A stretch of 64,000 nucleotides of DNA from Candidatus Liptonbacteria bacterium. Its GTDB lineage: Bacteria; Patescibacteriota; Minisyncoccia; UBA6257; JACOXY01. Every line of letters starts with the position of its first letter. Position 1 is the stretch's first letter. The notes under the pieces are model-generated. The model made no database searches, was not told the origin of the DNA, and saw only the letters and a program-made list of their open reading frames with translations. The stretch covers positions 7,234 to 71,233 of the forward strand of contig JACOXY010000014.1 in NCBI GenBank assembly GCA_016182095.1, written 5' to 3'. Shown here one piece after another: positions 2,432-63,651 of this stretch. The translations under genes and the position numbers were made by a program.

Positions 2432-2860
2432 TTATTGCCCCTCGATTGTTATTCCCATTGATCTCGCCGTGCCTTCAATGATTTTTTCTGCCGCTTCAAT
2501 ATCGTGAGCATTTAAATCAACCATTTTTTTCTCTGCAATTTCACGCACTTGCGCCTTCGTTACCTTTCCTACTTTCGTCTTCAGGGGGTCGGCGGAACCC
2601 TTATCCAGACCGGCCGCTTTTTTTAAAAGCGCTGAAGCTGGCGGAGTTTTAAGCTTAAAAGTAAAACTCCTGTCTTCATATATGGTAATAACCGCGGGCA
2701 CCACGTCCCCCGTCATTTCTTTTGTGGAATCGTTAAATTGCTTACAGAAGTCCTGTATGTTTATGCCATGGGGCCCGAGCGCCGTTCCCACGGGAGGGGC
2801 CGGGTTCGCTTTTCCGGCCTCTAATTGCAATTTTAAAGTTGTTTTGATTTTCTTGGCCAT
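2432..2860 (-). CDS. rplK: 50S ribosomal protein L11
   Basis: [25 protein letters not shown]. Confidence 0.99.
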
Positions 2861-2986
2861 CCCTCACTCAAGAAGGGGTATTATTTTGCCTTCTTGTTAT
2901 TCTTAGTAATCCGTTACTAATCTTTTGGGTTATATTACCACCCCAGGGGGCATTAGGGCAAGAGCTTGCCCCTTCTTGAGTGAGGG
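2861..2986. mobile_element. CCCTCACT-family TIR mini-element abutting the rplK start codon
   Basis: Perfect 20-bp inverted repeat ATCCCTCACTCAAGAAGGGG at 2859-2878 / 2969-2988. Confidence 0.75.
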
Positions 2987-3061
2987 ATAAATCCAATCAT
3001 GCAAACAAATTTATGTATTTGGTTTACTTTTTGTAGTTCCGATATGAAGCGGAAACAAAAA

Positions 3062-3619
3062 CTATATTTTTTTCACCTGCAGTGAATCAATCTCCACCGC
3101 CGTATCTCTGCCGAAAATCGGCACCATAACCTTGACCTTGCCCTTCTCCTCATCTACTTCCGCAATCTTGCCATCATAATCCTTAAAGGGGCCGTCGGTA
3201 ATCTTTACCATCTCCCCCACGCGCAATTCAACGGTCATCTTGGGCTCACCTTCTCCCATCTGACCTAAAAGAAAATCAACTTCTTCCTTAGAAAGCGGGG
3301 TGGGCACGGTTGAGTCGGCGCCAACGAATCCAGTAACGCGCGGGGTATTTCGTACTATATACCATGATTCTTCGGTCAAAATCATGTCCACCAAAACATA
3401 TCCTGGATAAATTTTCTCCTCAATAGTCTGACGCTTGCCGTTTTTAATCCTTATCTTTTTTTCTTTTGGAACCAAGACATTGAAAATTTTGTCCCCGGCC
3501 TCAAGCGATTCTATTCTTTGCGTTAAGTAGCGAACGACGGCATCTTCGTATCCGGCGTAGGTGTGAATTGCGTACCAATGCCTATTTTTGGTTGTTTTTA
3601 CTTCTTGTTGGTCTTTCAT
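3062..3619 (-). CDS. nusG: transcription antitermination factor NusG
   Basis: WYAIHTYAGYE, YPGYVLV, RNTPRVTGFVG, KOW domain. Confidence 0.98.
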   Translation of the reverse strand: MKDQQEVKTTKNRHWYAIHTYAGYEDAVVRYLTQRIESLEAGDKIFNVLVPKEKKIRIKNGKRQTIEEKIYPGYVLVDMILTEESWYIVRNTPRVTGFVGADSTVPTPLSKEEVDFLLGQMGEGEPKMTVELRVGEMVKITDGPFKDYDGKIAEVDEEKGKVKVMVPIFGRDTAVEIDSLQVKKI

Positions 3620-3624
3620 GGCAC

Positions 3625-3750
3625 ATAATGCGAAATTTGCAAATTTATTATGCCTATAGCCTGTCGGCTCGGCCGATTAAGGCGAATACCGCGAAAATTG
3701 ATTCTGAACTTTCGCACCATTCGCATACGGTTTTAGTTGTTTCGCATTAT
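3625..3750. repeat. intergenic hairpin built of GCGAA/TTCGC short repeats
   Basis: ATAATGCGAAA 3625-3635 / TTTCGCATTAT 3740-3750 with internal GCGAA(A/T) copies. Confidence 0.6.
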
Positions 3751-3767
3751 ATATATAATTTTGAAAA

Positions 3768-4079
3768 CTATTGCATTGGCTCTGCCGGAGGAACTGTTGT
3801 TACGTCCACATCTCCGGTTGCGCCCACTCCCCCGACTTCAAAATTCGGTAAATTAGCTGATTCAAGCGGCGCGGCATTTGTTGGGTTATTGTCGCCCTGG
3901 ACTATCATTTTCACCCCTTCTAAAAACAAAAAATCAAATACACCCAGAAATGAGGCAAGGGCGACCGAAATAACAATAACAATGCCGGTTAAACGCATCG
4001 TCTCTTCTCTTGTGGGCCAATTAACGCGCATTAATTCCTTGCGGGATTCCTGCAGGAATAATTTGATTTTGTGAAACAT
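3768..4079 (-). CDS. secE: preprotein translocase SecE with low-complexity C-terminal extension
   Basis: ELMRVNWPTREE motif plus one TM helix; directly upstream of nusG. Confidence 0.93.
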   Translation of the reverse strand: MFHKIKLFLQESRKELMRVNWPTREETMRLTGIVIVISVALASFLGVFDFLFLEGVKMIVQGDNNPTNAAPLESANLPNFEVGGVGATGDVDVTTVPPAEPMQ

Positions 4080-4160
4080 GCTAAATTTATTTTCCGCCTT
4101 AGGCGGATCAGCTTTGGCTGAAAATTGATTAATCGATAAAATTTAACTATAAATTCTTGC

Positions 4161-4197
4161 ACCCCGTTAGATGGCGGCTCCGCCTATCTAACGGGGT
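4161..4197. repeat. CCCCGTTAGA-family short palindrome
   Basis: ACCCCGTTAGAT...ATCTAACGGGGT; same arm as 29783-29896. Confidence 0.7.
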
Positions 4198-4386
4198 AAG
4201 GTTTTGTAACTGCAATTTGTTCGCGTCTACGCTCCAAATTTTAGACAAAGCCCTTAAAAAAGAGCGGAGCGCCCTTATTTGTTACATGATACCAGAAAAT
4301 CCCAAAAAAGCAACTCCCCTTCCCCCGAAGACTGCCCAACTAAAGTCCTTGAACATAAGTTAATTATACCACATTAACATTAAAAT

Positions 4387-7300
4387 CTAAATATCTAAAT
4401 TTTTGACCCCAGCGGCGTGAGTTTGGATAAATTGTTTTCTGGGCTCAACTTCGTCGCCCATTAAAATATCAAAAAGTTTATCGGCGTCTTCGGCATCTTT
4501 TACGGTTACAACCAGCATTTTGCGGGTAGCGGGATTCATGGTGGTATCCCAAAGCTGATCCGGATTCATCTCGCCCAAACCTTTATATCGCTGAACATTA
4601 ACCGCAACTCGCCTATCCCCCGCCGCCTCTTCAGCGTCCGCTTTCTCCGCTTCTTTTAATTCATGCTTTCCGGCTCGCGCTTTGCCAAATTTCACGATGA
4701 TCGCTTCTTTTTCGTTTTCATTATATGCATACTGAACCTCTTTGCCTGATTGAATTCTAAAAAGCGGCGGCTGGGCTATGTAAAGATAGCCGCCATGAAT
4801 AACCTGCGGAAAATAACGATAGAAAAGGGTGAGTAGCAGGGTGCGAATGTGCGCCCCATCAACGTCGGCATCGGTCATAATAACAATCTTGTGGTAACGA
4901 ATTTTTTCTATATTAAAGTCCTGGGCGATGGCGGTCCCCAGAGCCATCACCAGCGCGCGGATTTCTTTATTGGCAAGCATTTTATCTATGCGCGATTTTT
5001 CTACATTCAAAATTTTCCCGCGCAAAGGAAGTATTGCCTGCGTGCGCCGATCGCGGCCCATTTTTCCGCTATTGTGCACAAACACGCCAGAAGCCAATGC
5101 GAAATTATGAGTTTTAGGAACTTCAAGGTCATAAACATCAACTTTTTCATTAAGCCAAAGGATTTCTTTAATTTTGTGGTTATGACGCTCTACTGCTTCA
5201 ACTAAATTTCTTGCGTCGCTTCCAAAAAATCTTTTAACAATAGTTTCGGCGCGTAGCAAGTTTTTGTCATTAGTTGCTTTTCTTAGATTCTCATACTCAC
5301 TAAAGTCAATTTCGCCTTTAGTTTCGTAGATACCGCGCAAAGCTTGCAGGGCTTTCTGCTTATAGGTTTCGTTATAAGCAAGTTTTCTCCTTAAACGAAA
5401 TTCGGGCGTCCATTGATCTTTGGTTTTGCCGCTGCGCCATTTTTTAAGCTTCTCATCATTCCATTGTATTTTAGCGAATTCGGAGTAAGCAAGACGTTTT
5501 TCTGGATGGTTTTCAAAATAAGCTCGCGTGCGATTCGCTTGATCGCGCCGATTTTTTTCTTCTGACCAATATTCTTTTTGCGCTCTGCTTAAAATGCTCG
5601 CGCTCTGTGCCCGATAGGCCGCATTATTGTGATAAAAATCCAAAAATTTATCAGTCATAAATTGCTTATAATCTTTGTCTTGCCACTGTTTTTGGGCACG
5701 CTCACTTAGCATCTTTCTCATTTGTGGAGTAGACATGCTGGCTCTAATTTTATTCCTGTATTCAGGTGTCTGCCTTATTAGACGAAGTTTTTCTAAAACT
5801 TGAGGGGATCGCAAAAAAATATCCGCCATTTTACGATGCAGGCCTAAATGATCTTCGCTTGAAAGTCGTGTAATATTTTCCGGGTTATTGTTTAGTTTAT
5901 TGAAATCTATATGGTGTCTGTGCGCGCCAATGCTTTTTTCGTAAATATTATTTTTCAGATTATAGTCGTCAGATAGCATGTGGGTAAAAATCCATTTCTG
6001 GTTCTGCGAATTAAAAACCATTTCGTATCCGTCAATTGTAATGCGACCGCCAATTTTGGATATTTTTTTGTATAACGGCATTAGCGAGTCTTGCGATAAA
6101 AGATCCCTAGCTTTTTTATAAGAACCATTAAGAAGCATGAATTCGTGGTCTGGCGTACAAATAATTTCCTCGCCATTATCAAGCACAACTTTAACAACTT
6201 CTGTATTCTTTTTAGTAATCCTAGGATAAACTATTTTCTGTATTGCAACTGCCCCATCTTTATCAATGGTGTAGCAATAGTTTTGTATGCCTTTTTTATC
6301 CTCATGGACCAAATCCTTAAAAGACAAATTGCGTCCATCAGCCAGTGAAACTTTTGTGTTGCCCGAAAAACATCCTCCGGCTGAATCGCCTTCCACTATA
6401 AACAATTCCGATTCGGCCGGGTCTCGCGATGAGCAATCGGCTAATTTCCCTGGCAAGGTTAAGCCCTCAAGAATTCCTTTTCGCAAAACGGTGTCTTTCG
6501 CGGCCTTAGCGGCTTTGCGAGCTTTAGCCGCAAGCAAACACTTTTCAACCATTCTCCGCGCGTCAGCCGGATGTTTCTCTAAAAATTCTTTCAAAGACTC
6601 GCTTACCACCGATTCAACAACCGTTCTCGCCTCCGGAGTCCCAAGGCGGGCTTTGGTTTGCCCTTCAAATTGCGGTTGGGAAAGTTTAACGGAAATGACC
6701 GCCACCAAACCTTCGCGCACGTCATCGCCCGTCAAATTGTCGTCTTTTTCCTTTAAGTAACCCTCGGTTCGCGCGTAAGAATTGATGGCGCGGCTCAAAG
6801 CCGATTTAAACCCGGTTGAGTGCATGCCGCCATCGGAAGTATAGATGTTGTTGGCAAAACTTAACTCTTTTGATTCAATATCCTCGGTATAAGTAAAAGC
6901 TACTTCTACTTCTATGTTATTTTCGCTTTTTTGGATGTAAAAAGGATCGTCCTGCAGAACTTTCGCGGCAGGAGTAAGGTGCCGCAAAAACGAAAGCAGT
7001 CCGCCGTCAAATTTAAGGGCGTAATATTTTGGCGCGTCAGTCCTTAAATCCCAAAAGTCAATTCTAACTCCCTTTGTTAAAAACGCCTGCTGGCGCAAGT
7101 GGTCCAAAATATACTTCCAATCAAATTTAATCTCTCCGCCACCGGTTGAAAAAATCTCCGGGTCTGGCTCAAAAATAACTTTAGTGCCAATTTGATCGCA
7201 TTTACCGACCCTCTTCACGACTTTCTTCGCCTTGCCTCGTTCATATTCTTGCTCATAAAGATAGCCATCCCGACAAACTTCGGCTTTAAGATAAATTGAG

Positions 7301-7716
7301 AGCGCGTTAACCACAGAAACCCCAACGCCATGCAAACCACCGGAAACTTTATAAGAATCACCGCCAAATTTGCCCCCGGCGTGAAGCGTGGTCATAACTG
7401 TTTCCAGGGCGGATTTTTTCGTCTGCTTATGAATATCAACCGGGATGCCGCGCCCATTATCGGTAACCGCCACCCTATTCCCCGGCAAAAGCTCAACTTT
7501 GATAGCAGTGGCATACCCAGCCATCGCCTCATCAATAGAATTATCAACCACTTCCCAAATCAGGTGGTGCAAGCCGGCGCTGTCGGTTGTGCCAATATAC
7601 ATCCCGGGGCGCTTTCTTACCGGCTCAAGACCCTCCAAAACATAGATGTCCTTTGCTTCATAGCTCGCGTGCTTTGACGCGTCTGGAGTTTTTTTAGTTT
7701 CTTTTACTTTTGCCAT
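4387..7716 (-). CDS. gyrB: DNA gyrase subunit B containing an intein
   Basis: EPVRKRPGMYIG, GGLHGVG, EGDSAGG, PLRGKILN, MTDADVDG, QRYKGLGEM. Confidence 0.98.
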   Translation of the reverse strand: MAKVKETKKTPDASKHASYEAKDIYVLEGLEPVRKRPGMYIGTTDSAGLHHLIWEVVDNSIDEAMAGYATAIKVELLPGNRVAVTDNGRGIPVDIHKQTKKSALETVMTTLHAGGKFGGDSYKVSGGLHGVGVSVVNALSIYLKAEVCRDGYLYEQEYERGKAKKVVKRVGKCDQIGTKVIFEPDPEIFSTGGGEIKFDWKYILDHLRQQAFLTKGVRIDFWDLRTDAPKYYALKFDGGLLSFLRHLTPAAKVLQDDPFYIQKSENNIEVEVAFTYTEDIESKELSFANNIYTSDGGMHSTGFKSALSRAINSYARTEGYLKEKDDNLTGDDVREGLVAVISVKLSQPQFEGQTKARLGTPEARTVVESVVSESLKEFLEKHPADARRMVEKCLLAAKARKAAKAAKDTVLRKGILEGLTLPGKLADCSSRDPAESELFIVEGDSAGGCFSGNTKVSLADGRNLSFKDLVHEDKKGIQNYCYTIDKDGAVAIQKIVYPRITKKNTEVVKVVLDNGEEIICTPDHEFMLLNGSYKKARDLLSQDSLMPLYKKISKIGGRITIDGYEMVFNSQNQKWIFTHMLSDDYNLKNNIYEKSIGAHRHHIDFNKLNNNPENITRLSSEDHLGLHRKMADIFLRSPQVLEKLRLIRQTPEYRNKIRASMSTPQMRKMLSERAQKQWQDKDYKQFMTDKFLDFYHNNAAYRAQSASILSRAQKEYWSEEKNRRDQANRTRAYFENHPEKRLAYSEFAKIQWNDEKLKKWRSGKTKDQWTPEFRLRRKLAYNETYKQKALQALRGIYETKGEIDFSEYENLRKATNDKNLLRAETIVKRFFGSDARNLVEAVERHNHKIKEILWLNEKVDVYDLEVPKTHNFALASGVFVHNSGKMGRDRRTQAILPLRGKILNVEKSRIDKMLANKEIRALVMALGTAIAQDFNIEKIRYHKIVIMTDADVDGAHIRTLLLTLFYRYFPQVIHGGYLYIAQPPLFRIQSGKEVQYAYNENEKEAIIVKFGKARAGKHELKEAEKADAEEAAGDRRVAVNVQRYKGLGEMNPDQLWDTTMNPATRKMLVVTVKDAEDADKLFDILMGDEVEPRKQFIQTHAAGVKNLDI
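5071..6372 (-). mobile_element. intein (434 aa) with HNH-type endonuclease motif in the GyrB TOPRIM domain
   Basis: EGDSAGG|CFSGNT start, CTPDHEF block B, HHIDFNKLNNNPEN HNH motif, VYDLEV..THNF..GVFVHN|S end. Confidence 0.95.
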
Positions 7717-7909
7717 TTTTAAATGAAGAGCGTAGCGATGAATCTACAAAAATGAGCACCCCGCTCTAATTTTGCTATCACCATATCTTAAAATTCAGTT
7801 GGAACTATTTATATGATATTTGGTGCGACCTGCGCGTGCCGAATAGGCACATCCCGCTAATGGGCGAAGCGGGTCGCCATGGCATATTCCGCAAAATTAG
7901 AGCGGGGTA
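7717..7909 (-). mobile_element. CCCCGC-family TIR element with conserved tail at the gyrB start; ATGGC duplicated
   Basis: 18-bp IR 7758-7775 / 7891-7908; GCCAT at 7712-7716 and 7910-7914; tail shared with the parB and rpsR copies. Confidence 0.7.
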
Positions 7910-8026
7910 GCCATCTCAACAAAATAATGCTCCCCCCAGGAGCTAGATTTTCTTAATATTTTATACTTACAGTTTAGCATAAAACGAGTCTAAAAACAAC
8001 AGAAATTGGACTTAAAAAGCAACGCT

Positions 8027-8704: not shown

Positions 8705-8771
8705 TACAACCTACCTTTCTGTAAGAGTAGCTGATATTCTTATAGCAAAGTGAGTAAAAATTAGCAAATTT

Positions 8772-8812
8772 GACTTATGGGACTAATAGGACTTATAAGT
8801 CTTATAAGACCA
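8772..8812. repeat. 9-nt periodic repeats upstream of the four-helix-bundle gene
   Basis: GGACTAATA / GGACTTATA / AGTCTTATA units. Confidence 0.7.
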
Positions 8813-8821
8813 ATAAAACAT

Positions 8822-9370
8822 ATGTCTTATAAAGATTTAAAATCCTACCAGCAAGCGACAATAGTTTATGACTTTACTTTTGAATTCTGCAATCGTTACA
8901 TTGATAAAAGATCGCGCACTCACGATCAAATGGTGCAAGCCGCGCGCTCCGGGAAGCAAAACACAGTAGAAGGTTCCAGCGAAAAAACATCAGAAAAAAG
9001 CGAGCTGAAATTAATCGGGATAGCGCGTGGCTCATTGCAAAAACTTTTGGAAGATTATGAGGATTACTTAAGACAAAATGGGTTAAAACAATGGGGGAAA
9101 GACGGTCGGCGAGCAATTGAAATTAGAAATTTGTCTTATATGTTAAATAGGTCTTATTTGACCTATGAGTCTTATATTGGGAATCAAGAAGCCGCGGCTA
9201 ATGTAGCGATTTGCTTAATCCACCAGACAAACTATTTATTGGATCGCCAGATTAAAACATTAGAAAATGAATTTGTCTTGCGCGGCGGCTACAATGAAAA
9301 TCTCACAAGAAAACGCAACGAAGAGAAGAAAAGGGATATAATACAAAATTTTTGGAGAAAACAGCAATAA
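8822..9370 (+). CDS. four-helix-bundle protein (23S rRNA intervening-sequence protein-like, with suffix domain)
   Basis: YKDLKSYQ, DQMVQAARSGKQN.VEG, ARGSL..LLEDYEDYL, ANVAICLIHQTNYLLDRQ; start taken at 8822 because upstream codons are repeat-derived. Confidence 0.85.
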   Translation: MSYKDLKSYQQATIVYDFTFEFCNRYIDKRSRTHDQMVQAARSGKQNTVEGSSEKTSEKSELKLIGIARGSLQKLLEDYEDYLRQNGLKQWGKDGRRAIEIRNLSYMLNRSYLTYESYIGNQEAAANVAICLIHQTNYLLDRQIKTLENEFVLRGGYNENLTRKRNEEKKRDIIQNFWRKQQ

Positions 9371-9395
9371 AAAATACGGTTCGCAAACCGCATTT

Positions 9396-9442
9396 TATAA
9401 GTCCCATGGGGCCTATTGGACTAATAAGTCTTATAGGACTTA
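9396..9442. repeat. 9-nt periodic repeats downstream of the four-helix-bundle gene
   Basis: ATAAGTCCCATGGGGCCTATTGGACTAATAAGTCTTATAGGACTTA; partly complementary to 8772-8812. Confidence 0.7.
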
Positions 9443-9811
9443 TCTTCCAAGTGTCGCCCTGATCTTTGCCACCACCTCATTCAAATTCAGCGTCGCTTTT
9501 ACCAAATAATACGCCGGTTCATATTTAATTACATCCGCCATCACCTTGTCATCAGGAATTTGATTGGTTAAAACCACTATCGGAACTTTTTTACCCAACG
9601 GATCAGCCCGAAGTTTTTCCATAACTTTAATGCCGCTCATCTTTGGCATTAGAAGGTCTAAAAGTATCATATCCGGCTTTTGGCTTAAGGCAGCAGTAAG
9701 GCCCTCTTCGCCATCTTTCGCCTCAAGGACTTCAAATCCTTCGTTTAATAATGTGTCCACTAACGCGGCGCGTAGCGGAGTTTCGTCTTCAACAATAAGA
9801 ATTTTTGCCAT
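9440..9811 (-). CDS. single-domain response regulator
   Basis: KILIVEDE, PDMILLDLLMP.M.G, IVVLTN, YLVK. Confidence 0.93.
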   Translation of the reverse strand: MAKILIVEDETPLRAALVDTLLNEGFEVLEAKDGEEGLTAALSQKPDMILLDLLMPKMSGIKVMEKLRADPLGKKVPIVVLTNQIPDDKVMADVIKYEPAYYLVKATLNLNEVVAKIRATLGR

Positions 9812-9934
9812 CCCTCACTCAAGAAAGAGCATTATCCGCCCTCTCTTTTTTTAATTAATTTATCAACTTAATATTACTCGACTAAAAACATTTTATTCTA
9901 GAGACAGAAACCCAAACTCTTTCTTGAGTGAGGG
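9812..9934. mobile_element. CCCTCACT-family TIR mini-element between the kinase stop and the regulator start
   Basis: Perfect 20-bp IR ATCCCTCACTCAAGAAAGAG at 9810-9829 / 9917-9936. Confidence 0.75.
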
Positions 9935-9935
9935 A

Positions 9936-27867: not shown

Positions 27868-27905
27868 TTTTTAATTTATAATTTTTGGTTTATAATAGAA
27901 TTATG

Positions 27906-28044
27906 CCCAGTAATACAACTTACAGTATACTTGGCAAATTGTAACAAATCATTAGTAATGAACTTGAATAAATATTTATCAACTGATAAAGCTAGTTGAT
28001 TTTTATTTTTTAATAAAAATCACGCTGTAAGTTGATATACTAGG
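27906..28044 (+). mobile_element. CCCAGT-family TIR element with TATG duplication at the start codon
   Basis: Arms 27906-27925 / 28025-28044; TATG at 27902-27905 and 28045-28048; homologous to 63280-63417. Confidence 0.8.
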
Positions 28045-28045
28045 T

Positions 28046-28816
28046 ATGGCGCCTATAGAAAAGGAGGGTTATTGGACTCCATTAGAAAAACAGGTTAGAG
28101 ACTATATATTCCTGCCAATTACTTGGCCATTTAAGTTTATTCCGCATGCGGCCAACATTTTGACGATGATCGGATTCGGCATACTTTTTTATGCCATTTA
28201 CGATTTCTATATATATGAAAGCTATTCCCGCCAGATTTGGCTTTTAACCGCCGCCTGGCTCACGGATTTATTTGATGGACCGATAGCCAGAAACAACAAT
28301 GATGTAACCGCCTTCGGCACAGCCGCCGACCATATCCGCGACTACTTCATAAGTTTCTGGATGCTCACCCTCGCCTTCTTTATAACGGCAGATTCTCCGC
28401 AGTTTTGGCCGGTTTACTGGATTCTTGTTTTTACGATCTTGGGGCTTTTGGGCGTCATAGCGGGCACGTTGCTCTTCCAGAAAGAAAAACGCGGCGAGCG
28501 GCCATGGGGCGGATATCTGGATTTTTTCCGGGAATTTTTATTGAAAGATCTGGTCACGTCGGTAACGGCAAGAATACACACGGTAATCATGGCAATCGGC
28601 GGAGTTTTCTATATCGCGGGTGCCGCCTTGGGAGATGTTTACGCGAAAACAGGGGTGGTTATATTGATAATACAGCTTTTTGTTTTGGGCTTTTATAACC
28701 ACGAAATCCATGAGGCGCGCTACGAAGACAGGGCGCATAAAATAAGAAATATTCTCCAGGAAAAAATCCGCGAGTTGGAAGAAAAACTTAAAAAACACGT
28801 AAAAGTTGACGGCTAA
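28046..28816 (+). CDS. CDP-alcohol phosphatidyltransferase family protein
   Basis: ANILT, DLFDGPIAR...FG..AD...D signature. Confidence 0.88.
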   Translation: MAPIEKEGYWTPLEKQVRDYIFLPITWPFKFIPHAANILTMIGFGILFYAIYDFYIYESYSRQIWLLTAAWLTDLFDGPIARNNNDVTAFGTAADHIRDYFISFWMLTLAFFITADSPQFWPVYWILVFTILGLLGVIAGTLLFQKEKRGERPWGGYLDFFREFLLKDLVTSVTARIHTVIMAIGGVFYIAGAALGDVYAKTGVVILIIQLFVLGFYNHEIHEARYEDRAHKIRNILQEKIRELEEKLKKHVKVDG

Positions 28817-29782: not shown

Positions 29783-29896
29783 CCCGTTAGAGATAGGAGG
29801 CGCAACGCCTCCGTAATTTGTTTGCGACTATTTGAAATCAGGTTATTTGAAATATTTTTGCATCCCATTAAATATAGTTTGGTTATTTCTAACGGG
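29783..29896 (-). mobile_element. CCCGTTAGA-family TIR element with ATGAAT duplication at the start codon
   Basis: CCCGTTAGA...TCTAACGGG; ATTCAT at 29777-29782 and 29897-29902. Confidence 0.8.
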
Positions 29897-30202
29897 ATTC
29901 ATAATAAAATTATCATAGCATTAATTATGCGGCTTCCGCAACATATCTGGAGCTAGCGCATCATAAAACCAAAAGAAAAATAACAAGAGCGGCAAGGGAT
30001 AAAATCAGCCAGCCAAGGGTTATGAGCAGTAAATAAACCGCTTGTTTTCAAATGTGGTCAATTTTGGAAAAAGTGCGAACCCACTACGAGCAGAACCCTG
30101 ACAAAACCTAACCGCTCGGGCGGCGCGGAATTCCCCCCTTGAACCCCCCTTCCGCGCCGCCCTCGCGGGAAGTTCGTTTTTGCCCGCTTCGCGGGCACGC
30201 CG

Positions 30203-30601
30203 CTATTTCTTCGGGAAAAGATACTCAACCGCCACTCTCAACATCAAGTAAATCTGTGTTATTGTAGCAGTCACCAACAAACGGAAACTCCATTCTTCAA
30301 GAACAAATCCAAGCCATCCTGTTGCTTGAAGAAAAGCAAACGCGAAAATTATAAACGATTCGATACCGAGAAACCAGAGCAAGACCTTAAGCGTCAATTT
30401 CTTCAACTTAATATCTTGCTCAAGATCTACATTCTTTAGTTTTTCTCTCTTTGCTAATTCCTCTTTAATTCTAACCGGCTTTTGTTCAGAATACGAAAAT
30501 TCACTAGACGACTTTAATAGTTCCGCAACAGATTCAAAAGAAAGTGCTGGAGTTTCTTGCACTTCGGGCTCGTTTTTTGTCTTTTCTTTTTTATCAGTCA
30601 T
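30203..30601 (-). CDS. two-TM hypothetical protein
   Basis: Soluble N-terminus plus two C-terminal TM helices; 4 nt downstream of the peptidase gene. Confidence 0.7.
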   Translation of the reverse strand: MTDKKEKTKNEPEVQETPALSFESVAELLKSSSEFSYSEQKPVRIKEELAKREKLKNVDLEQDIKLKKLTLKVLLWFLGIESFIIFAFAFLQATGWLGFVLEEWSFRLLVTATITQIYLMLRVAVEYLFPKK

Positions 30602-33013: not shown

Positions 33014-33278
33014 ACATAAACACGATATCCACTTGAAATCATTTTATCATTGTGAATAAGATAAGTATATAGTAGAATATAAGTCACTAGGGAGTATAAT
33101 GATGTTGCGCGCGCACTGGGAGGGTGGGGCAAGCGCAACTCCAACTTTTCTAGCGGCGCGCCCGCGAAGCGGGCAAAAACGAACTTCCCGCGAGGGCGGC
33201 GCGGAAGGGGGGTTTAAGGGGGGAATTCCGCGCCGCCCGAGCGGTTAGGTTTCGTCAGGGTTCTGACTTTTTCAAATG

Positions 33279-37438: not shown

Positions 37439-38536
37439 ATGCTAAAAGACAACTCCCCTGTTATAAAAATAGTTAAAAAAACCCTGCCGGCGGTAATTTC
37501 AATTATTATTTCCAAAGATGCCAAAGAGGTTCAAAAAGAGTTGGATCAGAATTTGTCGCAGGTGCCGATCATGAATCCCGACCAGACAAAAATACCGAAA
37601 GAAGCCATAGACGCAAACGGCATGGTAAAAATTGGAGGCGGATCCGGTTTTGTTGTAAATGAGAATGGCACTATTTTAACCAATAAGCACGTCATAGCCG
37701 ACCCCAAGGCGGAATACGCAATCTTTACATCTAACGGAGAAAAATATGAGGCCGAGGTACTGGCGCGCGATCCGATAAACGACGTTGCAATTTTAAAAAT
37801 TAAGCCACAAAAACCTCTGCCAGTACTCTTGCTCGGCGATTCAACCAGGGTGGAACTTGGGCAATCCGTGCTCGCATTTGGAAACGCCTTGGGAATATTC
37901 AGGAATACGGTGTCATCAGGTATAGTTTCGGGCCTTTCCCGCTCTATAGCCGCGCAGGCCGACCCAACGGCCCCGCCGCAAGAAATGAGAGGCCTAATAC
38001 AGACAGACGCCGCAATTAACCCGGGAAACTCCGGCGGGCCGCTAGTTGATATTTTCGGGAAAGCAATCGGCATCAACGCGGCGCTTTTATTCGGCGCGCA
38101 AAATATCGGGTTCGCGATCCCCATAAATCACGCGAAGCGAGATCTGGAGGATTTGTGGCATTACGGCCATATCAAAAGGCCACTCTTGGGCATAAGTTAT
38201 GTGACGGTTGATGAAAATCTAAAAGCAAAAATGAATTTACCGGTTGATTACGGGGCGCTCGTGACCGGAGAAATGCATGAGCATAAAAATATTCTGGAAC
38301 ATGACCCAACACACCGCGCCTGCGCGAGAAGCGGCATAGTAATGGATAGCCCCGCCCACAAAGCCGGCATCAGAGAGAAGGATATAATATTGGAATGCAA
38401 CGGCGAGAAACTCGGGGTGGAAAAAACAATCCAGGATTTTCTTGAGGACCTTAAAGTTGGAGACACTTTGGCGCTCAAAGTTATGCGGGGAAATAAAGAA
38501 TTCAACGCCAAGGTACTTTTAGCAGAAAGAAAATGA
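37439..38536 (+). CDS. htrA: HtrA/DegP-like serine protease with PDZ domain
   Basis: GSGF, TNKHV, D.AILK, QTDAAINPGNSGGPL, SPA.KAG. Confidence 0.93.
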   Translation: MLKDNSPVIKIVKKTLPAVISIIISKDAKEVQKELDQNLSQVPIMNPDQTKIPKEAIDANGMVKIGGGSGFVVNENGTILTNKHVIADPKAEYAIFTSNGEKYEAEVLARDPINDVAILKIKPQKPLPVLLLGDSTRVELGQSVLAFGNALGIFRNTVSSGIVSGLSRSIAAQADPTAPPQEMRGLIQTDAAINPGNSGGPLVDIFGKAIGINAALLFGAQNIGFAIPINHAKRDLEDLWHYGHIKRPLLGISYVTVDENLKAKMNLPVDYGALVTGEMHEHKNILEHDPTHRACARSGIVMDSPAHKAGIREKDIILECNGEKLGVEKTIQDFLEDLKVGDTLALKVMRGNKEFNAKVLLAERK

Positions 38537-38561
38537 TTTATATAACTCAATACTGAATCCG

Positions 38562-39157
38562 TATCCTATATCTGTCCGATTGGACAAATCGGATTAAGAC
38601 GAAAAAGAAAAGGGCGCCAACAATGGGCGCTTTTTCTGACCCTACCCACACACCAAATTCCGAATACTATCCCTCGTGGCTTGATTATTTTGCCGCGGAA
38701 GGGTTCCGCACTTCGTAACAAAAATGCTCCGACCTTTGTCGGAGCGGAGCGCTTCACTTGCCATCGTCGAAAAATCGTCTAAGGTTGGCGGTATTACGCT
38801 TAAGAGAGTAAAGCGCTCCTCGAATCTTTTCCGGTCCTTTGCGAAGAATTTCACCGCCAAAGCCACTTTTTGCTAAATCCCTTTCGTATTTAGAAAGTTC
38901 CTCCAAACACATGTTAATTCCGTTATCTAATTCATTTATTTCCTGCAGAGCTTCGCACACCAACTCGCCGACCTTTTTGCTATTCATTATCCTCTCGGCA
39001 CCATTGAAAACAAGCTAAAAAGAACATATCATGAAATTGCGTAAAGCACAACTTCTAACGAATTACAGGCGGTGTGCGAAAGTACAAATAAAACACAGAG
39101 ATTACAGTTCGTATTTTAGTCTTAATCCGATTTGTCCAATCGGATAGATGTAGGATA
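38562..39157. mobile_element. 39-bp inverted-repeat-bounded cassette between htrA and relA
   Basis: 38562-38600 pairs with 39119-39157 (two mismatches, both G-U on the + strand). Confidence 0.7.
38754..38987 (-). CDS. small hypothetical protein inside the inverted-repeat cassette
   Basis: 77-aa helical ORF with GAGGA SD. Confidence 0.55.
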   Translation of the reverse strand: MNSKKVGELVCEALQEINELDNGINMCLEELSKYERDLAKSGFGGEILRKGPEKIRGALYSLKRNTANLRRFFDDGK

Positions 39158-39185
39158 GTAAATTCGTAATTCATCATAGAAATTC

Positions 39186-40890: not shown

Positions 40891-42015
40891 CTAAATTACA
40901 AAATCGTCTGAATAGCCCTCATCCATGTCATCGCCGCCTTCAGCGCCATTTTTTGCAAGTTTAAGCGCTATTCCCTTTAACTCCTCGGGAGAATAAAAGT
41001 CAATCATAATTTTGCCGCTTCCCCCGCTCTTTTTTATAGTAACCGGAGCGCCGAAAAACAGTTCTAATTGCTCTTTCAAATCAATGATTTCTGGGTCTTC
41101 ATAATCATCCATTTCATAAGGTGCGCTACCCGCTTCTTCCTTCATTTTAGCTACTTGTTTGATCTTATTCCGCAGTTCACGGACGCTTAAATTACTTTTC
41201 AAAATCTCGTCAAACAGTTTTTCTTGGTCACGGGGACTTGAAACCATAAGCAACATTCTTCCCTGACTCTCGTTAAGTTTGCCTTGCGTTAAAGCTTCCT
41301 GGACAACCGTGGGCAAACTTAGAAGCCGCATGGTATTAGCGATGCTTTCTCTGCTTTTGCCAAGCCGCGTGGCTATTTCCCTCTGTGTAAGCCGAAATTC
41401 ATCCTGGAGACGGGAAAATGCTCGAGCCGCCTCAATTGGATTTAAATCCTCGCGCTGGAGGTTCTCAATAATGGCCATCTCCAATTGTTCTTTTGGTGGT
41501 GATGGCTTCCTTATTATTACCGGCACCCTTTCTAAGCCGGCAATTTCGGCGGCGCGTAATCTTCGTTCACCGGCAATAAGCTGATAAGAAACATCTTGGC
41601 CAGACTCTGTTTCGTGCTCAACTTTAGAGACCAAAAGCGGCTGGAGAACCCCGAACTCCGCGATGGAGCGGGCTAGGTCATGAAGGGCTTCCGGATCAAA
41701 ATTCCGGCGCGGCTGTTCAGGATTGGGAGTAATTTTTGCTGTCTCAATGTGAAAAACAGGGCTTACCTCTAAATCCCTGGCCTTGCCGATAGATTTTCCC
41801 ATGCCTGACTCGTAAGCCGGCTTCATATGGCCACCCACAAAAGGATCGCGGCTAGGAATCTCCGGAGGGGTGAGGCGCGTATTTTCTTGCTGTAAATTCA
41901 TGGATGCAAAATCAGTTGAATTATTTAAATTCATTTCTTGAGGCGCCCGCCCCTCATTCTTCAGATTGTCTGGAGAGTGGGGGGGTATTAATGATTCAAG
42001 ACCGCGACCGAGCAT
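40891..42015 (-). CDS. parB: ParB/Spo0J partitioning protein
   Basis: MLGRGLESL, PNP.QPR, LIAGERRLRAA, ENLQREDLNP; start taken at ATG 42015. Confidence 0.95.
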   Translation of the reverse strand: MLGRGLESLIPPHSPDNLKNEGRAPQEMNLNNSTDFASMNLQQENTRLTPPEIPSRDPFVGGHMKPAYESGMGKSIGKARDLEVSPVFHIETAKITPNPEQPRRNFDPEALHDLARSIAEFGVLQPLLVSKVEHETESGQDVSYQLIAGERRLRAAEIAGLERVPVIIRKPSPPKEQLEMAIIENLQREDLNPIEAARAFSRLQDEFRLTQREIATRLGKSRESIANTMRLLSLPTVVQEALTQGKLNESQGRMLLMVSSPRDQEKLFDEILKSNLSVRELRNKIKQVAKMKEEAGSAPYEMDDYEDPEIIDLKEQLELFFGAPVTIKKSGGSGKIMIDFYSPEELKGIALKLAKNGAEGGDDMDEGYSDDFVI

Positions 42016-42159
42016 GCCATTTTTACCCAAGAGCGAAGCGATTGGCCGTAAAACCAAGCACCCCGCCCTCTAAGCAATTGATTAATAAAAAATATTTGAT
42101 TTAAATTTTAAACTAAATCCCGCAACACCTCAACAGTCTATGCGCATAGAGGGCGGGGT
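42016..42159 (-). mobile_element. CCCCGC-family TIR element with tail abutting the parB ATG
   Basis: IR 42060-42072 / 42147-42159; tail nearly identical to 46152-46196. Confidence 0.7.
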
Positions 42160-42982: not shown

Positions 42983-43269
42983 CCCTCACTCTTCAAGCAT
43001 TGATTCTCTCAACCGACGCTTGAGAGAGTAGAAACCTTTAGCAAAACGCTTAAGTTGCTTCTCGCGATTAAGCGCATCTGTTTTAGACCTATAACTTTCA
43101 AAATATATTAATGTCATTGGAAGCAGATGTTTAGTAGATTGAACCAGCCTTTTACTATGTTTTACTAATCTTTCTCTAAGATTTGGCGCAAAGCCTATAT
43201 AGAAACTTTTATCCTTCTTTGATTGTAATACATAAACATAAAACATAGTATATGCTTGAAGAGTGAGGG
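42983..43269 (-). mobile_element. CCCTCACT-family TIR element carrying a GIY-YIG gene, abutting the parA ATG
   Basis: Perfect IR CCCTCACTCTTCAAGCAT at 42983-43000 / 43252-43269. Confidence 0.8.
42986..43246 (-). CDS. stand-alone GIY-YIG nuclease (86 aa)
   Basis: FYVYVLQS....FYIG...NL..RL..H, L.YFE.Y....DA..RE..LK; stop codon lies inside the TIR. Confidence 0.9.
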   Translation of the reverse strand: MFYVYVLQSKKDKSFYIGFAPNLRERLVKHSKRLVQSTKHLLPMTLIYFESYRSKTDALNREKQLKRFAKGFYSLKRRLRESMLEE

Positions 43270-45282: not shown

Positions 45283-45849
45283 TTATACCGCATTTCCCCT
45301 GCCAACGCCCTCGCCCAAAGGAATCTCTTTGGCCTTGGGTTGATTAAGCAATTTAAGCGATAGATAAGCGCTAAAAAACGCGGAGGCCACTCCTCCAGCT
45401 ATATCAAGCGGCCAATGAACACCGACAAAAATCCTGCCCAAGGCAACAAAAAATGCCGCCCCGAAAAGCCAATAGCCAACTTTTTTGTTGAATAAATAGA
45501 CCGCGAAAGCCAGGGTAAAGTAAAAAATAACATGTCCGGACGGGAAAGACCCAGAATTCTCATGAGCAATAAGCGGCTCAAAATTTAAAGCGAGAAAGGG
45601 GCGCGGGCTTGCATAAACATATCTAAAAGTAGCAAGTATTACTCCGGAGATAACAAGCGCCAAAAGGAGAAAAGTAAAAAAAGAAAGTTTTTGCTTTGTT
45701 GACTTGTTTTTAAATCCGAAAACGGCAACCGACACAAGTATCGCGTAGCCCAAGTACTTCGCAAAAAAAATGCCCATCCAATCCAGCGGCCAGTAAAGTC
45801 CGGCAAATTGGTGAATGAGATTGAAGAGATAGAGATTCATATAGTCCAC
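45283..45849 (-). CDS. PAP2 family phosphatase (undecaprenyl-diphosphatase-like)
   Basis: PRPF, SFPSGH, GRIFVGVHWPLD. Confidence 0.92.
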   Translation of the reverse strand: MDYMNLYLFNLIHQFAGLYWPLDWMGIFFAKYLGYAILVSVAVFGFKNKSTKQKLSFFTFLLLALVISGVILATFRYVYASPRPFLALNFEPLIAHENSGSFPSGHVIFYFTLAFAVYLFNKKVGYWLFGAAFFVALGRIFVGVHWPLDIAGGVASAFFSAYLSLKLLNQPKAKEIPLGEGVGRGNAV

Positions 45850-45938
45850 GAATTTACGAATTTAGCGAATATACTAATCTTGGCAAACGCCACAAAGTGC
45901 TCAATTCATATATTAGCAAAATTCGTAAATTCGTGGAG

Positions 45939-46151
45939 TTATCTACGGACAAACGGGAGCAATCCAAGAAATCTCGCCCGTTTAATCGCCTCCGCGAGTC
46001 TCCTTTGGTGCTTTGCGCAAGTTCCTGTATGCATGGGATCAATGATTTTCGCCTGGCCCGAAGTAAACTTCCTCAAAAAATCAGAGTCCTTATAATCTAT
46101 TTCCTGCAAGTTTTGCGAACAAAAGTAACATTGAAAGTAACATTGGCGCAT
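45939..46151 (-). CDS. rpsR: 30S ribosomal protein S18
   Basis: CYFC, IDYKD, TGTCAKHQR.LA.AIKRARFLGLLPF; start taken at ATG 46151. Confidence 0.97.
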   Translation of the reverse strand: MRQCYFQCYFCSQNLQEIDYKDSDFLRKFTSGQAKIIDPMHTGTCAKHQRRLAEAIKRARFLGLLPFVRR

Positions 46152-46295
46152 GCCGTTTTTGCCCAAGAGCAAAGCGATTGGATGCAAAACCGAGCACCCC
46201 GCTCTCTAAGCATATAAATAATGGTTAAAATTTAATTTATAATTTGATTATTTTTAGACACGAAACCTTATAATTCCAGCACATAGAGAGCGGGG
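46152..46295 (-). mobile_element. CCCCGC-family TIR element with tail abutting the rpsR ATG
   Basis: IR 46197-46208 / 46284-46295 plus shared tail. Confidence 0.7.
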
Positions 46296-54706: not shown

Positions 54707-54830
54707 CCCAGTAACACTACTTCAGTGTTACCCGACATATAAGCAAACTAATTGTCATAAAACAATGTCAAAATGCCAAACTAATAATTTATGCTTCGGA
54801 AATAAATTATGCTGAAGTAGTGTTACTGGG
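54707..54830. mobile_element. CCCAGT-family TIR element with CAAG duplication upstream of rpoB
   Basis: Perfect 19-bp IR 54707-54725 / 54812-54830; CAAG at 54703-54706 and 54831-54834. Confidence 0.8.
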
Positions 54831-55801: not shown

Positions 55802-55961
55802 AGACCTTTTGTACAATTCCTTTTCTACTGCAATTTCCATATTTTGGCTACGGCTTTGTAAAAATTTCTTGAAATATATTCTGTATATTCCTTCAAAATT
55901 TTTACTTCGCCTCGCTCAAGATCTGAAAATTTCGTTACGAAAAGAATTGTACAAAAGGTCT
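55802..55961. repeat. intergenic hairpin element between rodA and mltG
   Basis: AGACCTTTTGTACAATTC / GAATTGTACAAAAGGTCT. Confidence 0.7.
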
Positions 55962-57033: not shown

Positions 57034-57151
57034 AGAAATAAATAAAAAATCAAAATGCAAAAATCAAAATTGATGAAGCTTGAAAAATTACTTTGCAATT
57101 TTTCAAGCAACCGGAATTTTTATTTTTGATATCTAATTTTTGATATTGCTT

Positions 57152-57916: not shown

Positions 57917-57955
57917 AAATTCATCATATAAAATCTTTTTTCTCTCGCGCTCTCC

Positions 57956-58116
57956 GCAATATATAAATTATCCTTGCTTCTCCTAAAAAATGAATAAGAA
58001 AATGCCGAACTCAACCTGGTTTTGCTAAAGCAAAACTGCGGGATTCAAACAGCGGCATTTTCTTATTTTTTACTCGAAGCTTCGGTAATTTATATATCTT
58101 GCTACGCGATGCTTAT
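57956..58116. repeat. left arm of a 161-bp inverted repeat
   Basis: Near-perfect reverse complement of 59478-59638; contains an internal AATAAGAAAATGCCG/CGGCATTTTCTTATT hairpin. Confidence 0.92.
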
Positions 58117-58173
58117 TCAAAAAGATTTTATGCTCTTACATATATTAAGATAATAGCAGAAAAAATAAAATAG

Positions 58174-59093: not shown

Positions 59094-59099
59094 TTCAAC

Positions 59100-59128: not shown

Positions 59129-59173
59129 GTAGTCAAAAAAACAGCGTGAAATAAGGGTTTTATAAGCAAGTGA

Positions 59174-59385
59174 GAAGCCCAACTTTGTGACATCCGATGT
59201 CCAGAAACAAAAGACATTAATATTCGGGACATCGGAAGTCAATGCAAAGTCCAACTTTGCGACATCCGATATCTAAAGATGTGGCTGCGGAAAGAAGCCC
59301 AACTTTGTGACTTCCGATGTCCAGAAACAAAAAACTTCAACCCTTCGACTTCGCTCAGGGCAGGCATTTAGGACTTCGGATGTAA
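59174..59385. repeat. cluster of GACWTCCGATGTCC REP-like palindromes
   Basis: 39-nt direct repeat at 59174-59212 and 59294-59332, degenerate copy ~59250, inverted copies ~59227 and ~59371. Confidence 0.75.
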
Positions 59386-59477
59386 GGGGTTATCCTACTA
59401 TATACTGCCCCACTTGGCGCCAAAAAGCCACACGAGGGGTAAGACCTAATATTTGGAAAATGGCGCAACATTTTTTT

Positions 59478-59638
59478 ATGAGCATCACACAGCAATATCT
59501 ATAAATTATCGAAGCTTCGAGTAAAAAATAAGAAAATGCCGCTGTCTGAATCCCGCAGTTTTGCTTTAGCAAAACCAGGTTGAGTTCGGCATTTTCTTAT
59601 TCATTTTTTAGGAGAAGCAAGGATAATTTATATATTGC
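59478..59638. repeat. right arm of a 161-bp inverted repeat
   Basis: Reverse complement of 57956-58116. Confidence 0.92.
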
Positions 59639-59669
59639 AGGGGGCGCGAAGAAAAAAACGTTGTGCCAT

Positions 59670-61550: not shown

Positions 61551-61561
61551 AATTAAAACTA

Positions 61562-61615
61562 TTTCCTGAACTTGTCGAAGGAATACAATATTGTAACCCT
61601 TCGATAAACTCGGGG
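61562..61615. repeat. CTGA..TGTCGAAG / CTTCGA..CTCAG REP-like palindrome
   Basis: Shares arms and the AATACAATA(C/T)TGTA loop with 58617-58672. Confidence 0.7.
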
Positions 61616-61745
61616 TATAAAGTTTCTTCGCTCTGCTTAGCATTACCAACGCGAGCGAATGCGGATAATTCTATCACACTTAAAAGAGCTTGACAAGTAA
61701 TATATGACGTGTTAAACTTGGCACAGCAAGAAAGGAGGGTTCAGA

Positions 61746-61984
61746 TGGTTGAACTTATTTACCGCAAAAATAAGGAAGAAGAGACTATGCTGAAAAGTGA
61801 AGCATGGAAGATACAGGTGCGGCAGAATGAAATAATAATGCTAATTGATCTGACTATGACTAACTCACTACTTGCACTGCACGCAACCACAGCAGAGGAG
61901 CGGGAGGATAACATTGCAAGCATTAGAAAACTCCACACGGAGTTCACAGAGAATCAGAGAAAACTTCTCGCCCTTTCTGGCTGA
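61746..61984 (+). CDS. small helical hypothetical protein
   Basis: TTGACA promoter, AAGGAGG SD, AGGCAACC/GGTTGCCT terminator downstream. Confidence 0.6.
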
Positions 61985-62057
61985 TCCGGCCAAAAAAAAG
62001 AAGCGTTAAGTTCCCCAAGGCAACCCCGCAAAGGTTGCCTTTTTAGGGAGTGTGAGT

Positions 62058-63278
62058 CTAATGGGCAATTTTCACAACCCGAACTTTCTGAATCTGGTGG
62101 CCAGACACTTCTTCCACTTGAAATTTAAGCCCATTTAACTCAAAAGCTTCGCCAAGTTCCGGGGCGTGATTAAGTTTTTCCGTAAGAAATCCGTGTAATG
62201 TTTTCTTGGACTTGATCTCGGTATTGAAAAAATGGTTAATAGAGGCGATTTTTGTCTGGCCATGAGCAATAATCTCATCTTTGCTCACGCGCTTGATAAT
62301 CTCGGGCACAATATCTTTTTCGTCAATAATTTCTCCGACCAATTCCTCCAATACGTCTTCAAGGCCAACCACGCCCACAATATTGCCATACTCACTAACT
62401 ACAACCGCTAAATGCAAACGCTTCTCCTGAAAATCGTGTATGAGATCATCCGCAAGCCGGGTATCGGGAACAAAGAATGCCTCTTTGGCGTAACTCAAAA
62501 CTTTTTTATCAAACTCATCGCTCGCGAGGGCGCGCAAAAGATCTCTCTGGTGGACGATGCCCACGATATTATCTTTATTTCCCTGATACACTGGGAGGCG
62601 CGAATGCTTGGCGTTTTTAATAAATTCAGCGGCATCTTTTATGGTAACCCCGCCGTCCAAAAAAGTAACAAAGGGCCGCGGAGTCATCATGTCTCCGGCG
62701 GTAATGTCATTCAATTTAAATACGCGCTCAATCATGGCGGCTTCGCCGGCCCGGATCACGCCCTCTTTCACGCCCGCCTGGGTTAAGAGCGCGATTTCTT
62801 CTTCGGAGGTCGTAAATGGCGAGGCACCGCTCGTAAACGGCTTTGAAATAATTTCTAAAATTACGACCAGTGGAGAAATAAGAATAGTAAGCCAAGAAAG
62901 TGGAACCGCGGCTAACGGAAAAATAACAGGGCTCCAGCGCTCACCGATATTTTTAGGAAGAATCTCGGCAAGAGTAATCATAAAAAATGTCAGTATCGCC
63001 GAAAAAATCCCGATGCCTAAATCAGAAAAAAGCTCCGCGGCAAGCGTTCCCATGAAAATACTCCCCACAGTACTTATAGTCGAAGAAAGCACCACAAGCG
63101 TCGCGATGGTTTTTAACGGCTTTTCGCGCAATTCCAATGCCTTTCGCACCCCAAATTTACCTTGCGCAACATAGACACGCGCCTTAGAAATGGGGTAAGA
63201 AAATAGCGCCGCCTCAATCAAAGAAAGCGTCCCGCCTATTGTTATTAATCCTAAAGCCAAAATGACTAAAGCTGCCAT
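62058..63278 (-). CDS. hemolysin/CNNM family CBS-domain protein (DUF21-CBS-CorC)
   Basis: EAALFS, EILPK, MTPR, HSRLPVY, EYG...GVV.LEDVLEELVGEI.DE; start taken at ATG 63278. Confidence 0.92.
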   Translation of the reverse strand: MAALVILALGLITIGGTLSLIEAALFSYPISKARVYVAQGKFGVRKALELREKPLKTIATLVVLSSTISTVGSIFMGTLAAELFSDLGIGIFSAILTFFMITLAEILPKNIGERWSPVIFPLAAVPLSWLTILISPLVVILEIISKPFTSGASPFTTSEEEIALLTQAGVKEGVIRAGEAAMIERVFKLNDITAGDMMTPRPFVTFLDGGVTIKDAAEFIKNAKHSRLPVYQGNKDNIVGIVHQRDLLRALASDEFDKKVLSYAKEAFFVPDTRLADDLIHDFQEKRLHLAVVVSEYGNIVGVVGLEDVLEELVGEIIDEKDIVPEIIKRVSKDEIIAHGQTKIASINHFFNTEIKSKKTLHGFLTEKLNHAPELGEAFELNGLKFQVEEVSGHQIQKVRVVKIAH

Positions 63279-63279
63279 A

Positions 63280-63417
63280 CCCGGTATATCAACTTTCAGC
63301 ATGATTTATTTTTGCAAAATAAATCATTAAATCTGGTGGTTGATAATATTTATGATAATTTAATTTATTTTAAACTTTTTCGCATTTTGCCAAAAAACTG
63401 AAAGTTGTATTACTGGG
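63280..63417 (-). mobile_element. CCCAGT-family TIR element with TATG duplication at the start codon
   Basis: Arms 63280-63299 / 63398-63417; CATA at 63276-63279 and 63418-63421. Confidence 0.8.
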
Positions 63418-63651
63418 CATAGTTTTAGCATACGGAAATTATGGGAAAATAACAAAGCTACGCACCAGAACAAGTTCGGTGCGTTACTTCACTTCGTTTA
63501 GCTTTCTCTCACAAATTAAAAAAGTTTGTTCTACTTTATCAAGTTCTTCGGAACTGAAGGCGCTACGGTGCCGGCCCCTAACCCACTGCGGTTGGGGGTT
63601 TTTTATTTTAAACAAAAATCCGCCTCTCGGCGAAATTTTTCTGCTCTTCTT

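Follow-up and report, generated by a model that had tools for sequence, protein, structure and literature searches.

Mobile hairpin elements on start codons of a Candidatus Liptonbacteria genome, and the small GIY-YIG nuclease that probably mobilises them

The closest published system to the elements described here is that of the Ssn nucleases, 94-residue GIY-YIG proteins whose genes are flanked by NTS/SRM hairpins, and for which a mobile-element origin is only hypothesised in the accessible part of the account (Chenal et al. 2025, PMC11893778). Our subject is a group of hairpin elements with CCC..GGG arms that lie at start codons in a 64,000-nucleotide stretch of contig JACOXY010000014.1 (the window) from a Candidatus Liptonbacteria bacterium (assembly GCA_016182095.1; genome 893 kb, completeness 97.5%). 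As in the Ssn/NTS system, a single-domain GIY-YIG protein of ∼90 residues is encoded between inverted repeats, and gene-less repeats are amplified in the genome. Each NTS, however, is a hairpin in its own right, whereas here the two ends of an element pair with each other, and target duplication, empty sites and start-codon targeting are not reported in as much of PMC11893778 as is accessible. Judging from sequence, we consider it rather probable that the elements are copies, resembling MITEs (miniature inverted-repeat transposable elements), of mobile cassettes of ∼270–300 bp with one gene for a GIY-YIG nuclease of 80–90 residues, and that this nuclease drives their mobility while host repair finishes the process.

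MITEs derived from insertion sequences (IS), such as the Correia elements, share with the present elements terminal inverted repeats (TIRs), short duplications, gene-less derivatives, a location upstream of genes and possible cleavage by RNase III (PMC10969869, accessible text). Here, in contrast, the parent is a ∼280-bp cassette with a GIY-YIG gene and no DDE or HUH transposase, and insertion is flush on start codons; neither 'start codon' nor 'GIY-YIG' occurs in the accessible text of that review. The REPIN/RAYT and TIRtron/TIRYT systems likewise have a single gene for an enzyme flanked by inverted repeats, together with families of gene-less repeats, but their enzyme, as far as the accessible text describes it, is an HUH tyrosine transposase (PMC3733652) instead of a GIY-YIG nuclease associated with duplications and start-codon targeting. 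A literature search in which subscription journals were mostly uncovered found no published description of GIY-YIG cassettes on start codons, and the supplements of PMC11893778 may list Patescibacteria homologues.

Arm families, start codons and mobility

The initial annotation described at least nine elements in the window as flush against a start codon, with arms that differed between copies. We find instead that four arm families, A to D, cover the nine sites. Family A (CCCTCAC..GTGAGGG, 18 bp perfect), at rplK, a response regulator gene and parA, ends directly on the ATG, as does family C (CCCGTTAGA..TCTAACGGG, 12/20 positions complementary), at a DUF5671 gene; family B (CCCAGTAATAC..GATATACTGGG, 16/20 complementary), at a CDP-alcohol transferase gene and a CNNM gene, ends one base before it. 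These six sites bear out the description, but at gyrB, parB and rpsR the arms of family D (CCCCGC..GCGGGG) are separated from the ATG by a conserved tail of 42–45 nt (42–52 nt in eight genome copies). The duplications quoted earlier are all in place (TATG at 27902/28045 and 63276/63418, ATGAAT at 29777/29897, ATGGC at 7712/7910 and AT at 9810/9935), and the parB and rpsR elements have no flanking duplication. The interiors had been taken for mostly unrelated AT-rich DNA. Fourteen of 25 short A copies, however, have a partner 89–97% identical in the interior, family A interiors fall into subfamilies 87–97% identical, and the gyrB interior has 49% GC. Below, G000 denotes the present genome and C numbers its contigs, C18 being the one that holds the window, while other G numbers are other genomes and L numbers fetched loci. 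On C10 and C12 lie copies that match the interior of the response-regulator element at 87–91% identity. Host genes in the window were named by Pfam, apart from gyrB, which like the hosts elsewhere in the genome was named from its translation; gene calls are crude (875 open reading frames, ORFs).

Elements are concentrated on start codons far above intergenic chance. A de novo scan of the genome for CCC..GGG arms found 82 pairs, with some nesting or redundancy among them; 28 are flush with an ATG opening at least 60 codons, compared with 6, 1 and 2 pairs, none flush, in three block-shuffled genomes and a background of 187 flush among 15,706 GGG ends (1.2%). In family A, 21/33 copies are flush on a start codon where 3.0% would be expected from intergenic AT sites (p 3e-24), and 21 of the 23 copies followed by ATG lie on real starts where 17% would be expected (p 1e-14); because the copies are mutually related and not independent, these p-values overstate. 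Two hairpins of <30 bp (C3:37966, C23:20985-21008) and the variant-arm elements C1:2670 and C16:15077 were dropped from the count, and six further copies bring the family to 26/39 on start codons; for family B the figure is 9/12. Hosts include rpoA, rpsD, rpsI, rplT, groEL, ftsK and secY, and one ribosomal-protein operon bears four such elements. Six A copies stand directly behind an upstream stop as TAA|T, as expected from former TAATG overlaps.

The 20-mer of the family A arm matches at 54 places in the genome, compared with a single match across 400 further genomes from the class; weaker patterns locate copies in relatives in the same taxonomic family. None of 29 relatives has an A element before rplK, the nusG-rplK gap being at most 31 nt in 15/28. 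Of 121 genomes in the order, 41 contain the 12-mer of the C arm plus ATG (control matches are few), and because of this breadth such elements affect the 5′ ends of genes and the annotation of their starts in many Patescibacteria.

The elements are real and mobile at the DNA level. The earlier proposal, under which the start codon serves mobile elements as a safe place to insert, is borne out both by this enrichment and by empty single-ATG alleles, which families B and C have in congeners at 75–93% identity. All three family B sites compared are empty in a congener, at gltX and a second gene in G060 against G034 (89–93% identical) and at a third gene in G445 against G036 (75%). The duplication is 4 bp, and is also found at the non-ATG targets CACG (three times), TATA (twice) and CTTG. 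Family C insertions in G481, at greA, ftsA and a third gene, are likewise empty in both congeners (3/3); the duplication is of ATGAA, and the left end has an additional T. Family C overall has ATG-containing duplications of 4–6 bp plus this fixed T; among 68 copies, the left flank reads ATG-NN-T in 36 and ends in T in 66 (the right ATG was forced by the search).

Dispersed copies tell the same story of movement. The greA insertion is a full cassette; G030 has a 94% identical copy at the start of a different gene, and G056 has a copy at 76%. Three A cassettes that are almost the same in sequence occupy the starts of three different genes, in records with the titles Patescibacteria, Wolfebacteria and Saccharibacteria. 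Twenty stretches of G060 held one B copy and no A- or C-type copy. Three features of MITEs can thus be recognised: TIRs (with an extra 3′ tail in family D), target duplications with empty sites in families B and C, and dispersed similar non-coding copies. Contiguity was checked on Logan contigs from four DNA runs, possibly of the source sample. Besides the rplK element (Table 1), those at DUF5671, parB, parA and rpsR are each spanned in at least two runs among the listed contigs; these five are therefore not assembly artefacts. A copy at least 96% identical to the DUF5671 element is found in run X1 with other flanks, apparently on a different gene start. Close to the 5′ end of rpsR, 12 nt are duplicated (window 46122-46133; QCYF twice); contigs of all four runs lack this duplication, which is likely an assembly error or rare variant.

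Some copies are nested or stacked (G000 C5:1223-1485, C16:12288-12530, C23:20985-21193, L155 and L163), the inner C5 copy duplicating 4–6 bp of the outer. In four A copies (C2:6575-6698, C2:7915-8032, C22:2892-2981 and C14:5532-5669) the reading frame runs through the element as a prepilin-type leader that ends in ..KGEGG and is followed by a hydrophobic stretch; one of the four passes Pfam N_methyl, and a cleaved leader of this type may be a second safe site for insertion. In being read in frame these four resemble the Rickettsia palindromic elements, as outlined in the accessible text of PMC10969869, from which the present elements differ in that most copies lie outside coding sequence, on a start codon.

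Translation from a start codon predicted to be buried

The statement of the initial annotation that the 3′ arm covers the ribosome-binding region calls for caution. The full-length 16S rRNA ends without the CCUCC anti-Shine-Dalgarno, so that there is no Shine-Dalgarno pairing to block, and on the same ground the G-rich arm was dismissed as a Shine-Dalgarno sequence. The start itself is nevertheless predicted to be buried, and the puzzle is real: folding leaves the region −15..+3 unpaired at 6% in 16 short A copies, compared with 48% in 58 control genes, rising to 31% if transcription starts in the loop. Initiation independent of Shine-Dalgarno pairing is favoured by unstructured starts (PMC5397173, accessible part). 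How ribosomes of this kind start on an ATG in an 18-bp stem, and in essential operons, is a testable question. The 16S rRNA gene is spread over 2339 nt by insertions (G000 C3:40004-42342), and the 5S gene and 23S end lie on a different contig, in the window.

An ORF within the element, usually MLLLE, ends 3 nt before the ATG in 19/21 flush A copies compared with 6/12 non-flush ones; by eye, it is present in two of five later flush copies and shifted in the other three. Translational coupling from this mini-ORF in the 3′ arm would be our favoured rescue of the buried ATG, if not a general one. Loop promoters and RNase III may be further routes to expression; most interiors contain −10-like boxes, which are weak evidence given the AT-rich DNA. 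The rpoA insertion is shared in the family, where G003 has the left arm only, G001 has a right-arm remnant fused in frame and G002 is empty. Since one arm or the other has been lost in two family relatives, the hairpin is not maintained there, which fits a tolerated burden that erodes and not a maintained processing device.

These observations bear on an RNA-level explanation, according to which the start codon becomes free only once the hairpin has been removed or cut, RNase III being one candidate for the cut, either as regulation or with intron-like neutrality. Perfect 18-bp stems that bury the ATG in an organism without an anti-Shine-Dalgarno would be in keeping with it, a related cassette lies in 23S rRNA, the genome has an RNase III gene, and Correia elements are substrates of RNase III (PMC10969869, accessible text). 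We nevertheless find this explanation highly improbable, as the insertion sites are lineage-specific, the arms erode at rpoA in two relatives and the duplicated ATG makes excision unnecessary; an Rfam search of the window matched only tRNAs and 5S, with no intron or structured-RNA model. Cutting by RNase III could occur as a side effect, compatible with the nuclease-cassette explanation.

A GIY-YIG nuclease gene in the long forms

It is formally true, as had been stated, that the window contains no transposase, but the earlier description missed an intact GIY-YIG ORF in the parA copy. A second 287-bp A copy in the genome has a broken GIY-YIG gene and one D copy an intact one. Long forms with such a gene are found in all four families, namely A (the window, C2:11564, L031-33 and L044), B (L183), C (L101, L137, L296, L307 and L311) and D (C5:19485), and the A copy at C18:87090 retains both ends of a deleted nuclease gene. 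The short forms are MITE-like derivatives of the long ones by internal deletion. Parents of kb size were not seen: among 107 right arms in fetched loci three are unpaired, and none of these has a partner 330–1500 bp upstream. A viral scan gave two weak matches, with no phage vector shown.

A motif in which Tyr, Gly, Arg and His are fixed picked out 73 distinct proteins of this type in the fetched loci. Arms of the CC..GG type bracket 28 of them, 10 of which end flush on ATG, and the glutamate of the DA..RE motif, which lies outside the selection motif, is kept in all 28. The tree places the A-arm proteins in one clade (93/92) and most C-arm proteins in another (96/99), and uncorrected pN/pS values for three pairs are 0.22, 0.23 and 0.37. 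The ORF ends are tied to the host gene, the nuclease ORF of the long B form L183 beginning at the duplicated ATG and the nuclease stop being the TGA of the host ATGA in 5/5 flush long C copies. An AlphaFold model of the parA-copy nuclease (pLDDT 91) has a fold like that of Slx1, UPF0213 and HIGLE, its best Foldseek matches being 6seh (E 5e-3), 1zg2 and 7wme; UPF0213 is represented by BH0048, and all structural matches have E above 1e-3. The sole sequence match in the PDB is 1zg2 (E 8.5e-4), and an NCBIfam scan found no family above cut-off. Slx1, HIGLE and UPF0213 act in host repair or are uncharacterised, and to our knowledge none of them lies inside a mobile cassette.

It is likely, we infer, that the nuclease is the mobiliser of the elements. 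In the mechanism that we propose, it would nick the base of the extruded hairpin and also an AT-rich target, with a stagger of about 4 nt, after which host gap repair and ligation would complete insertion, host functions being invoked because the nuclease has no integrase domain. The start-codon bias would likely combine a YATG/ATGA target preference with survival of the insertions that spare the gene, each leaving an intact ATG at the element's 3′ end. The cassette borrows host expression through the duplicated ATG (long B), the host ATGA stop (long C) or a stop 3 nt before the ATG (parA copy), and the host gene would likely be translated by re-initiation once the 3′ arm had been melted by the nuclease ORF or by the mini-ORF that remains of it (MLLLE-stop). 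Loop promoters or RNase III might help re-initiation, and splicing would be unnecessary.

A different role for the nuclease is suggested by the Ssn system, that of a single-strand DNase specific for hairpins, by which incoming DNA is restricted or steered, the repeats spreading by nick-triggered recombination without true transposition. The precedent is a 94-residue GIY-YIG protein of the same size and fold class, flanked by hairpins, for which an IS-like layout has been noted in the accessible part of PMC11893778. This we regard as quite unlikely here, where the arms pair across the gene, with target duplications and clean empty sites, and copies target starts instead of clustering. Motifs resembling NTS are also essentially absent, with one match at up to four substitutions in 893 kb and no dRS3 (the degenerate SRM pattern of the paper was not used).

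Several observations weigh against the nuclease as mobiliser, and the first concern junctions and sites. For families A and D no base-level empty site was obtained: G000 has no congener, and other pairs are too distant for one (G001/G003 ∼74%, G057/G463 75%, G028/G480 72%). The A junctions are heterogeneous, with ATGAAT in 4/21 and TAA|T in six. Among the joints listed in the four DNA runs none skips an element, contigs tending to drop rare variants. One arm-bearing GIY-YIG cassette sits in 23S rRNA, in genus g71 (L197-L205), where 4/12 genomes are filled, five have a short hairpin only and three have no match; because the short allele retains the stem, we do not count this as an empty site. 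Another pattern, sought in the 12 genomes of g71, matched once. Coupling has exceptions in rplK, without an upstream ORF, and in the three copies, secY among them, whose mini-ORF is shifted, and conservation of the mini-ORF may come from common descent only. Among the proteins, 45/73 lack such arms, 18/28 armed ones are not flush on ATG, two C-arm proteins and the D-arm proteins fail to group by arm, and many forks in the tree are open. We know of no strand-transfer activity for an 86-residue nuclease alone.

Further such points would favour a conventional transposase, according to which the elements are ordinary MITEs moved in trans by a DDE enzyme or a resident Y1/RAYT-like HUH enzyme, with the GIY-YIG gene as passenger and the start bias arising from a YATG/ATGA target and selection. 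TIRs with a 4-bp duplication are the classic DDE anatomy, and family B also inserts at CACG, TATA, CTTG and CAAG. The genome has a Y1 (IS200/RAYT-like) transposase gene (PF01797, C18:85055), the only transposase candidate seen by eye in a de novo IS search (128 arm pairs 0.7–3 kb apart), which could act in trans. Similar CCC..GGG arms also enclose an ArsR-like gene, tRNA genes and a membrane ORF, and the nuclease could be cargo too. This explanation seems unlikely to us, although less so than the Ssn-like role. All long A–D forms seen hold a GIY-YIG gene between the TIRs and none a transposase; the genome has no PF01609 gene, a narrow scope, as this was the only DDE family searched. The Y1 gene is flanked by arms of its own, different from those of the elements, nuclease clades track arm type for A and most of C, and the ORF ends are built into the arms.

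The stronger version of the nuclease reading is tentative: that these are a new class of autonomous ∼280-bp transposon whose sole protein, an Slx1-like GIY-YIG nuclease, would act as transposase with host repair, targeting start codons by design through the host ATG/ATGA and keeping essential genes (rpoA, rpsD, groEL, gyrB, secY) expressed by coupling. Such a transposon would be smaller than any IS family known to us. If the nuclease is the mobiliser, it would represent a new enzyme class in bacterial transposition, and an 86-residue protein with a simple target would be a directly testable tool. The elements belong for now to a known kind, a TIR element with its MITEs, and would be categorically new if the nuclease proves to be the transposase.

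Features of the window and other repeats

The elements of the window are collected in Table 1, which includes a tenth copy, absent from the earlier list.

Table 1. Hairpin elements and the nuclease ORF in the 64-kb window
Feature	Position	Strand	Remarks
Family A short element	2861..2986	-	Flush on rplK ATG (2860); no in-element ORF ending near ATG; spanned by contigs of 4 runs
Minimal family C hairpin, 33 bp	4163..4195	.	Intergenic
Family D element before gyrB	7717..7914	-	Arms 7759-7907; 42-nt tail up to ATG at 7716; ATGGC repeat 7910-7914
Family A short element before response regulator	9812..9934	-	TAA|T...ATG junction; mini-ORF MLFLE ends 3 nt before ATG
Family B short element	27906..28044	+	On CDP-alcohol phosphatidyltransferase start; TATG duplication 27902-27905 / 28045-28048
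Family C short element	29783..29896	-	On DUF5671 start; ATGAA(T) duplication
Family D element before parB	42016..42158	-	Arms 42061-42158; 45-nt tail up to ATG at 42015
Family A full-length element, 287 bp	42983..43269	-	Flush on parA ATG; left flank G|T instead of A|T
Intact 86-aa single-domain GIY-YIG nuclease ORF	42986..43246	-	TGA inside 3′ arm, 3 nt before parA ATG; PF01541 E 6e-13
Family D element before rpsR	46152..46295	-	Arms 46197-46295; 45-nt tail up to ATG at 46151
Family B short element between mltG and rpoB	54707..54830	+	CAAG duplication; not on a start codon; tenth copy
Family B short element	63280..63417	-	On CNNM start; TATG duplication; 3′ part has an in-frame ATG 24 nt upstream (8-aa extension)

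Other CCC..GGG pairs in the genome, at G000 C1:32665-33027 and C18:77644-78012, enclose the ArsR-like helix-turn-helix gene and the small membrane-protein ORF. Arms of the A, C and related types surround tRNA genes, some beside partial tRNA duplicates, at C16:40406, C10:104506, C5:6473, C18:91150 and C1:2670, and at L129, L132 and L133 small GIY-YIG genes that lack CCC..GGG arms are flanked by one partial tRNA gene and one whole one.

The gyrB product of 1109 residues has an apparent large in-frame insertion (window 5070-6350) ending ..FVHN|S, which we take to be intein-like; contigs join 5064 to 6373. At window 8766-9441 a 197-residue protein with a weak, below-cut-off match to a four-helix bundle (23S rRNA IVP) lies between long imperfect palindromes, and similar AT-rich inverted repeats are found at 38536-39183, 45845-45937, 55802-55961 and 57042-57144, and also before rplK in several relatives. 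A 212-nt inverted repeat pair (87%; window 57936-58147 and 59447-59658) surrounds 1.3 kb, and a 115-nt repeat pair (97%; 30091-30205 and 33151-33265) surrounds a methyltransferase-like block. Outside the window, in tpiA (G000 C13:74977-75325), an inverted repeat appears to have given rise to peptides inserted in frame.

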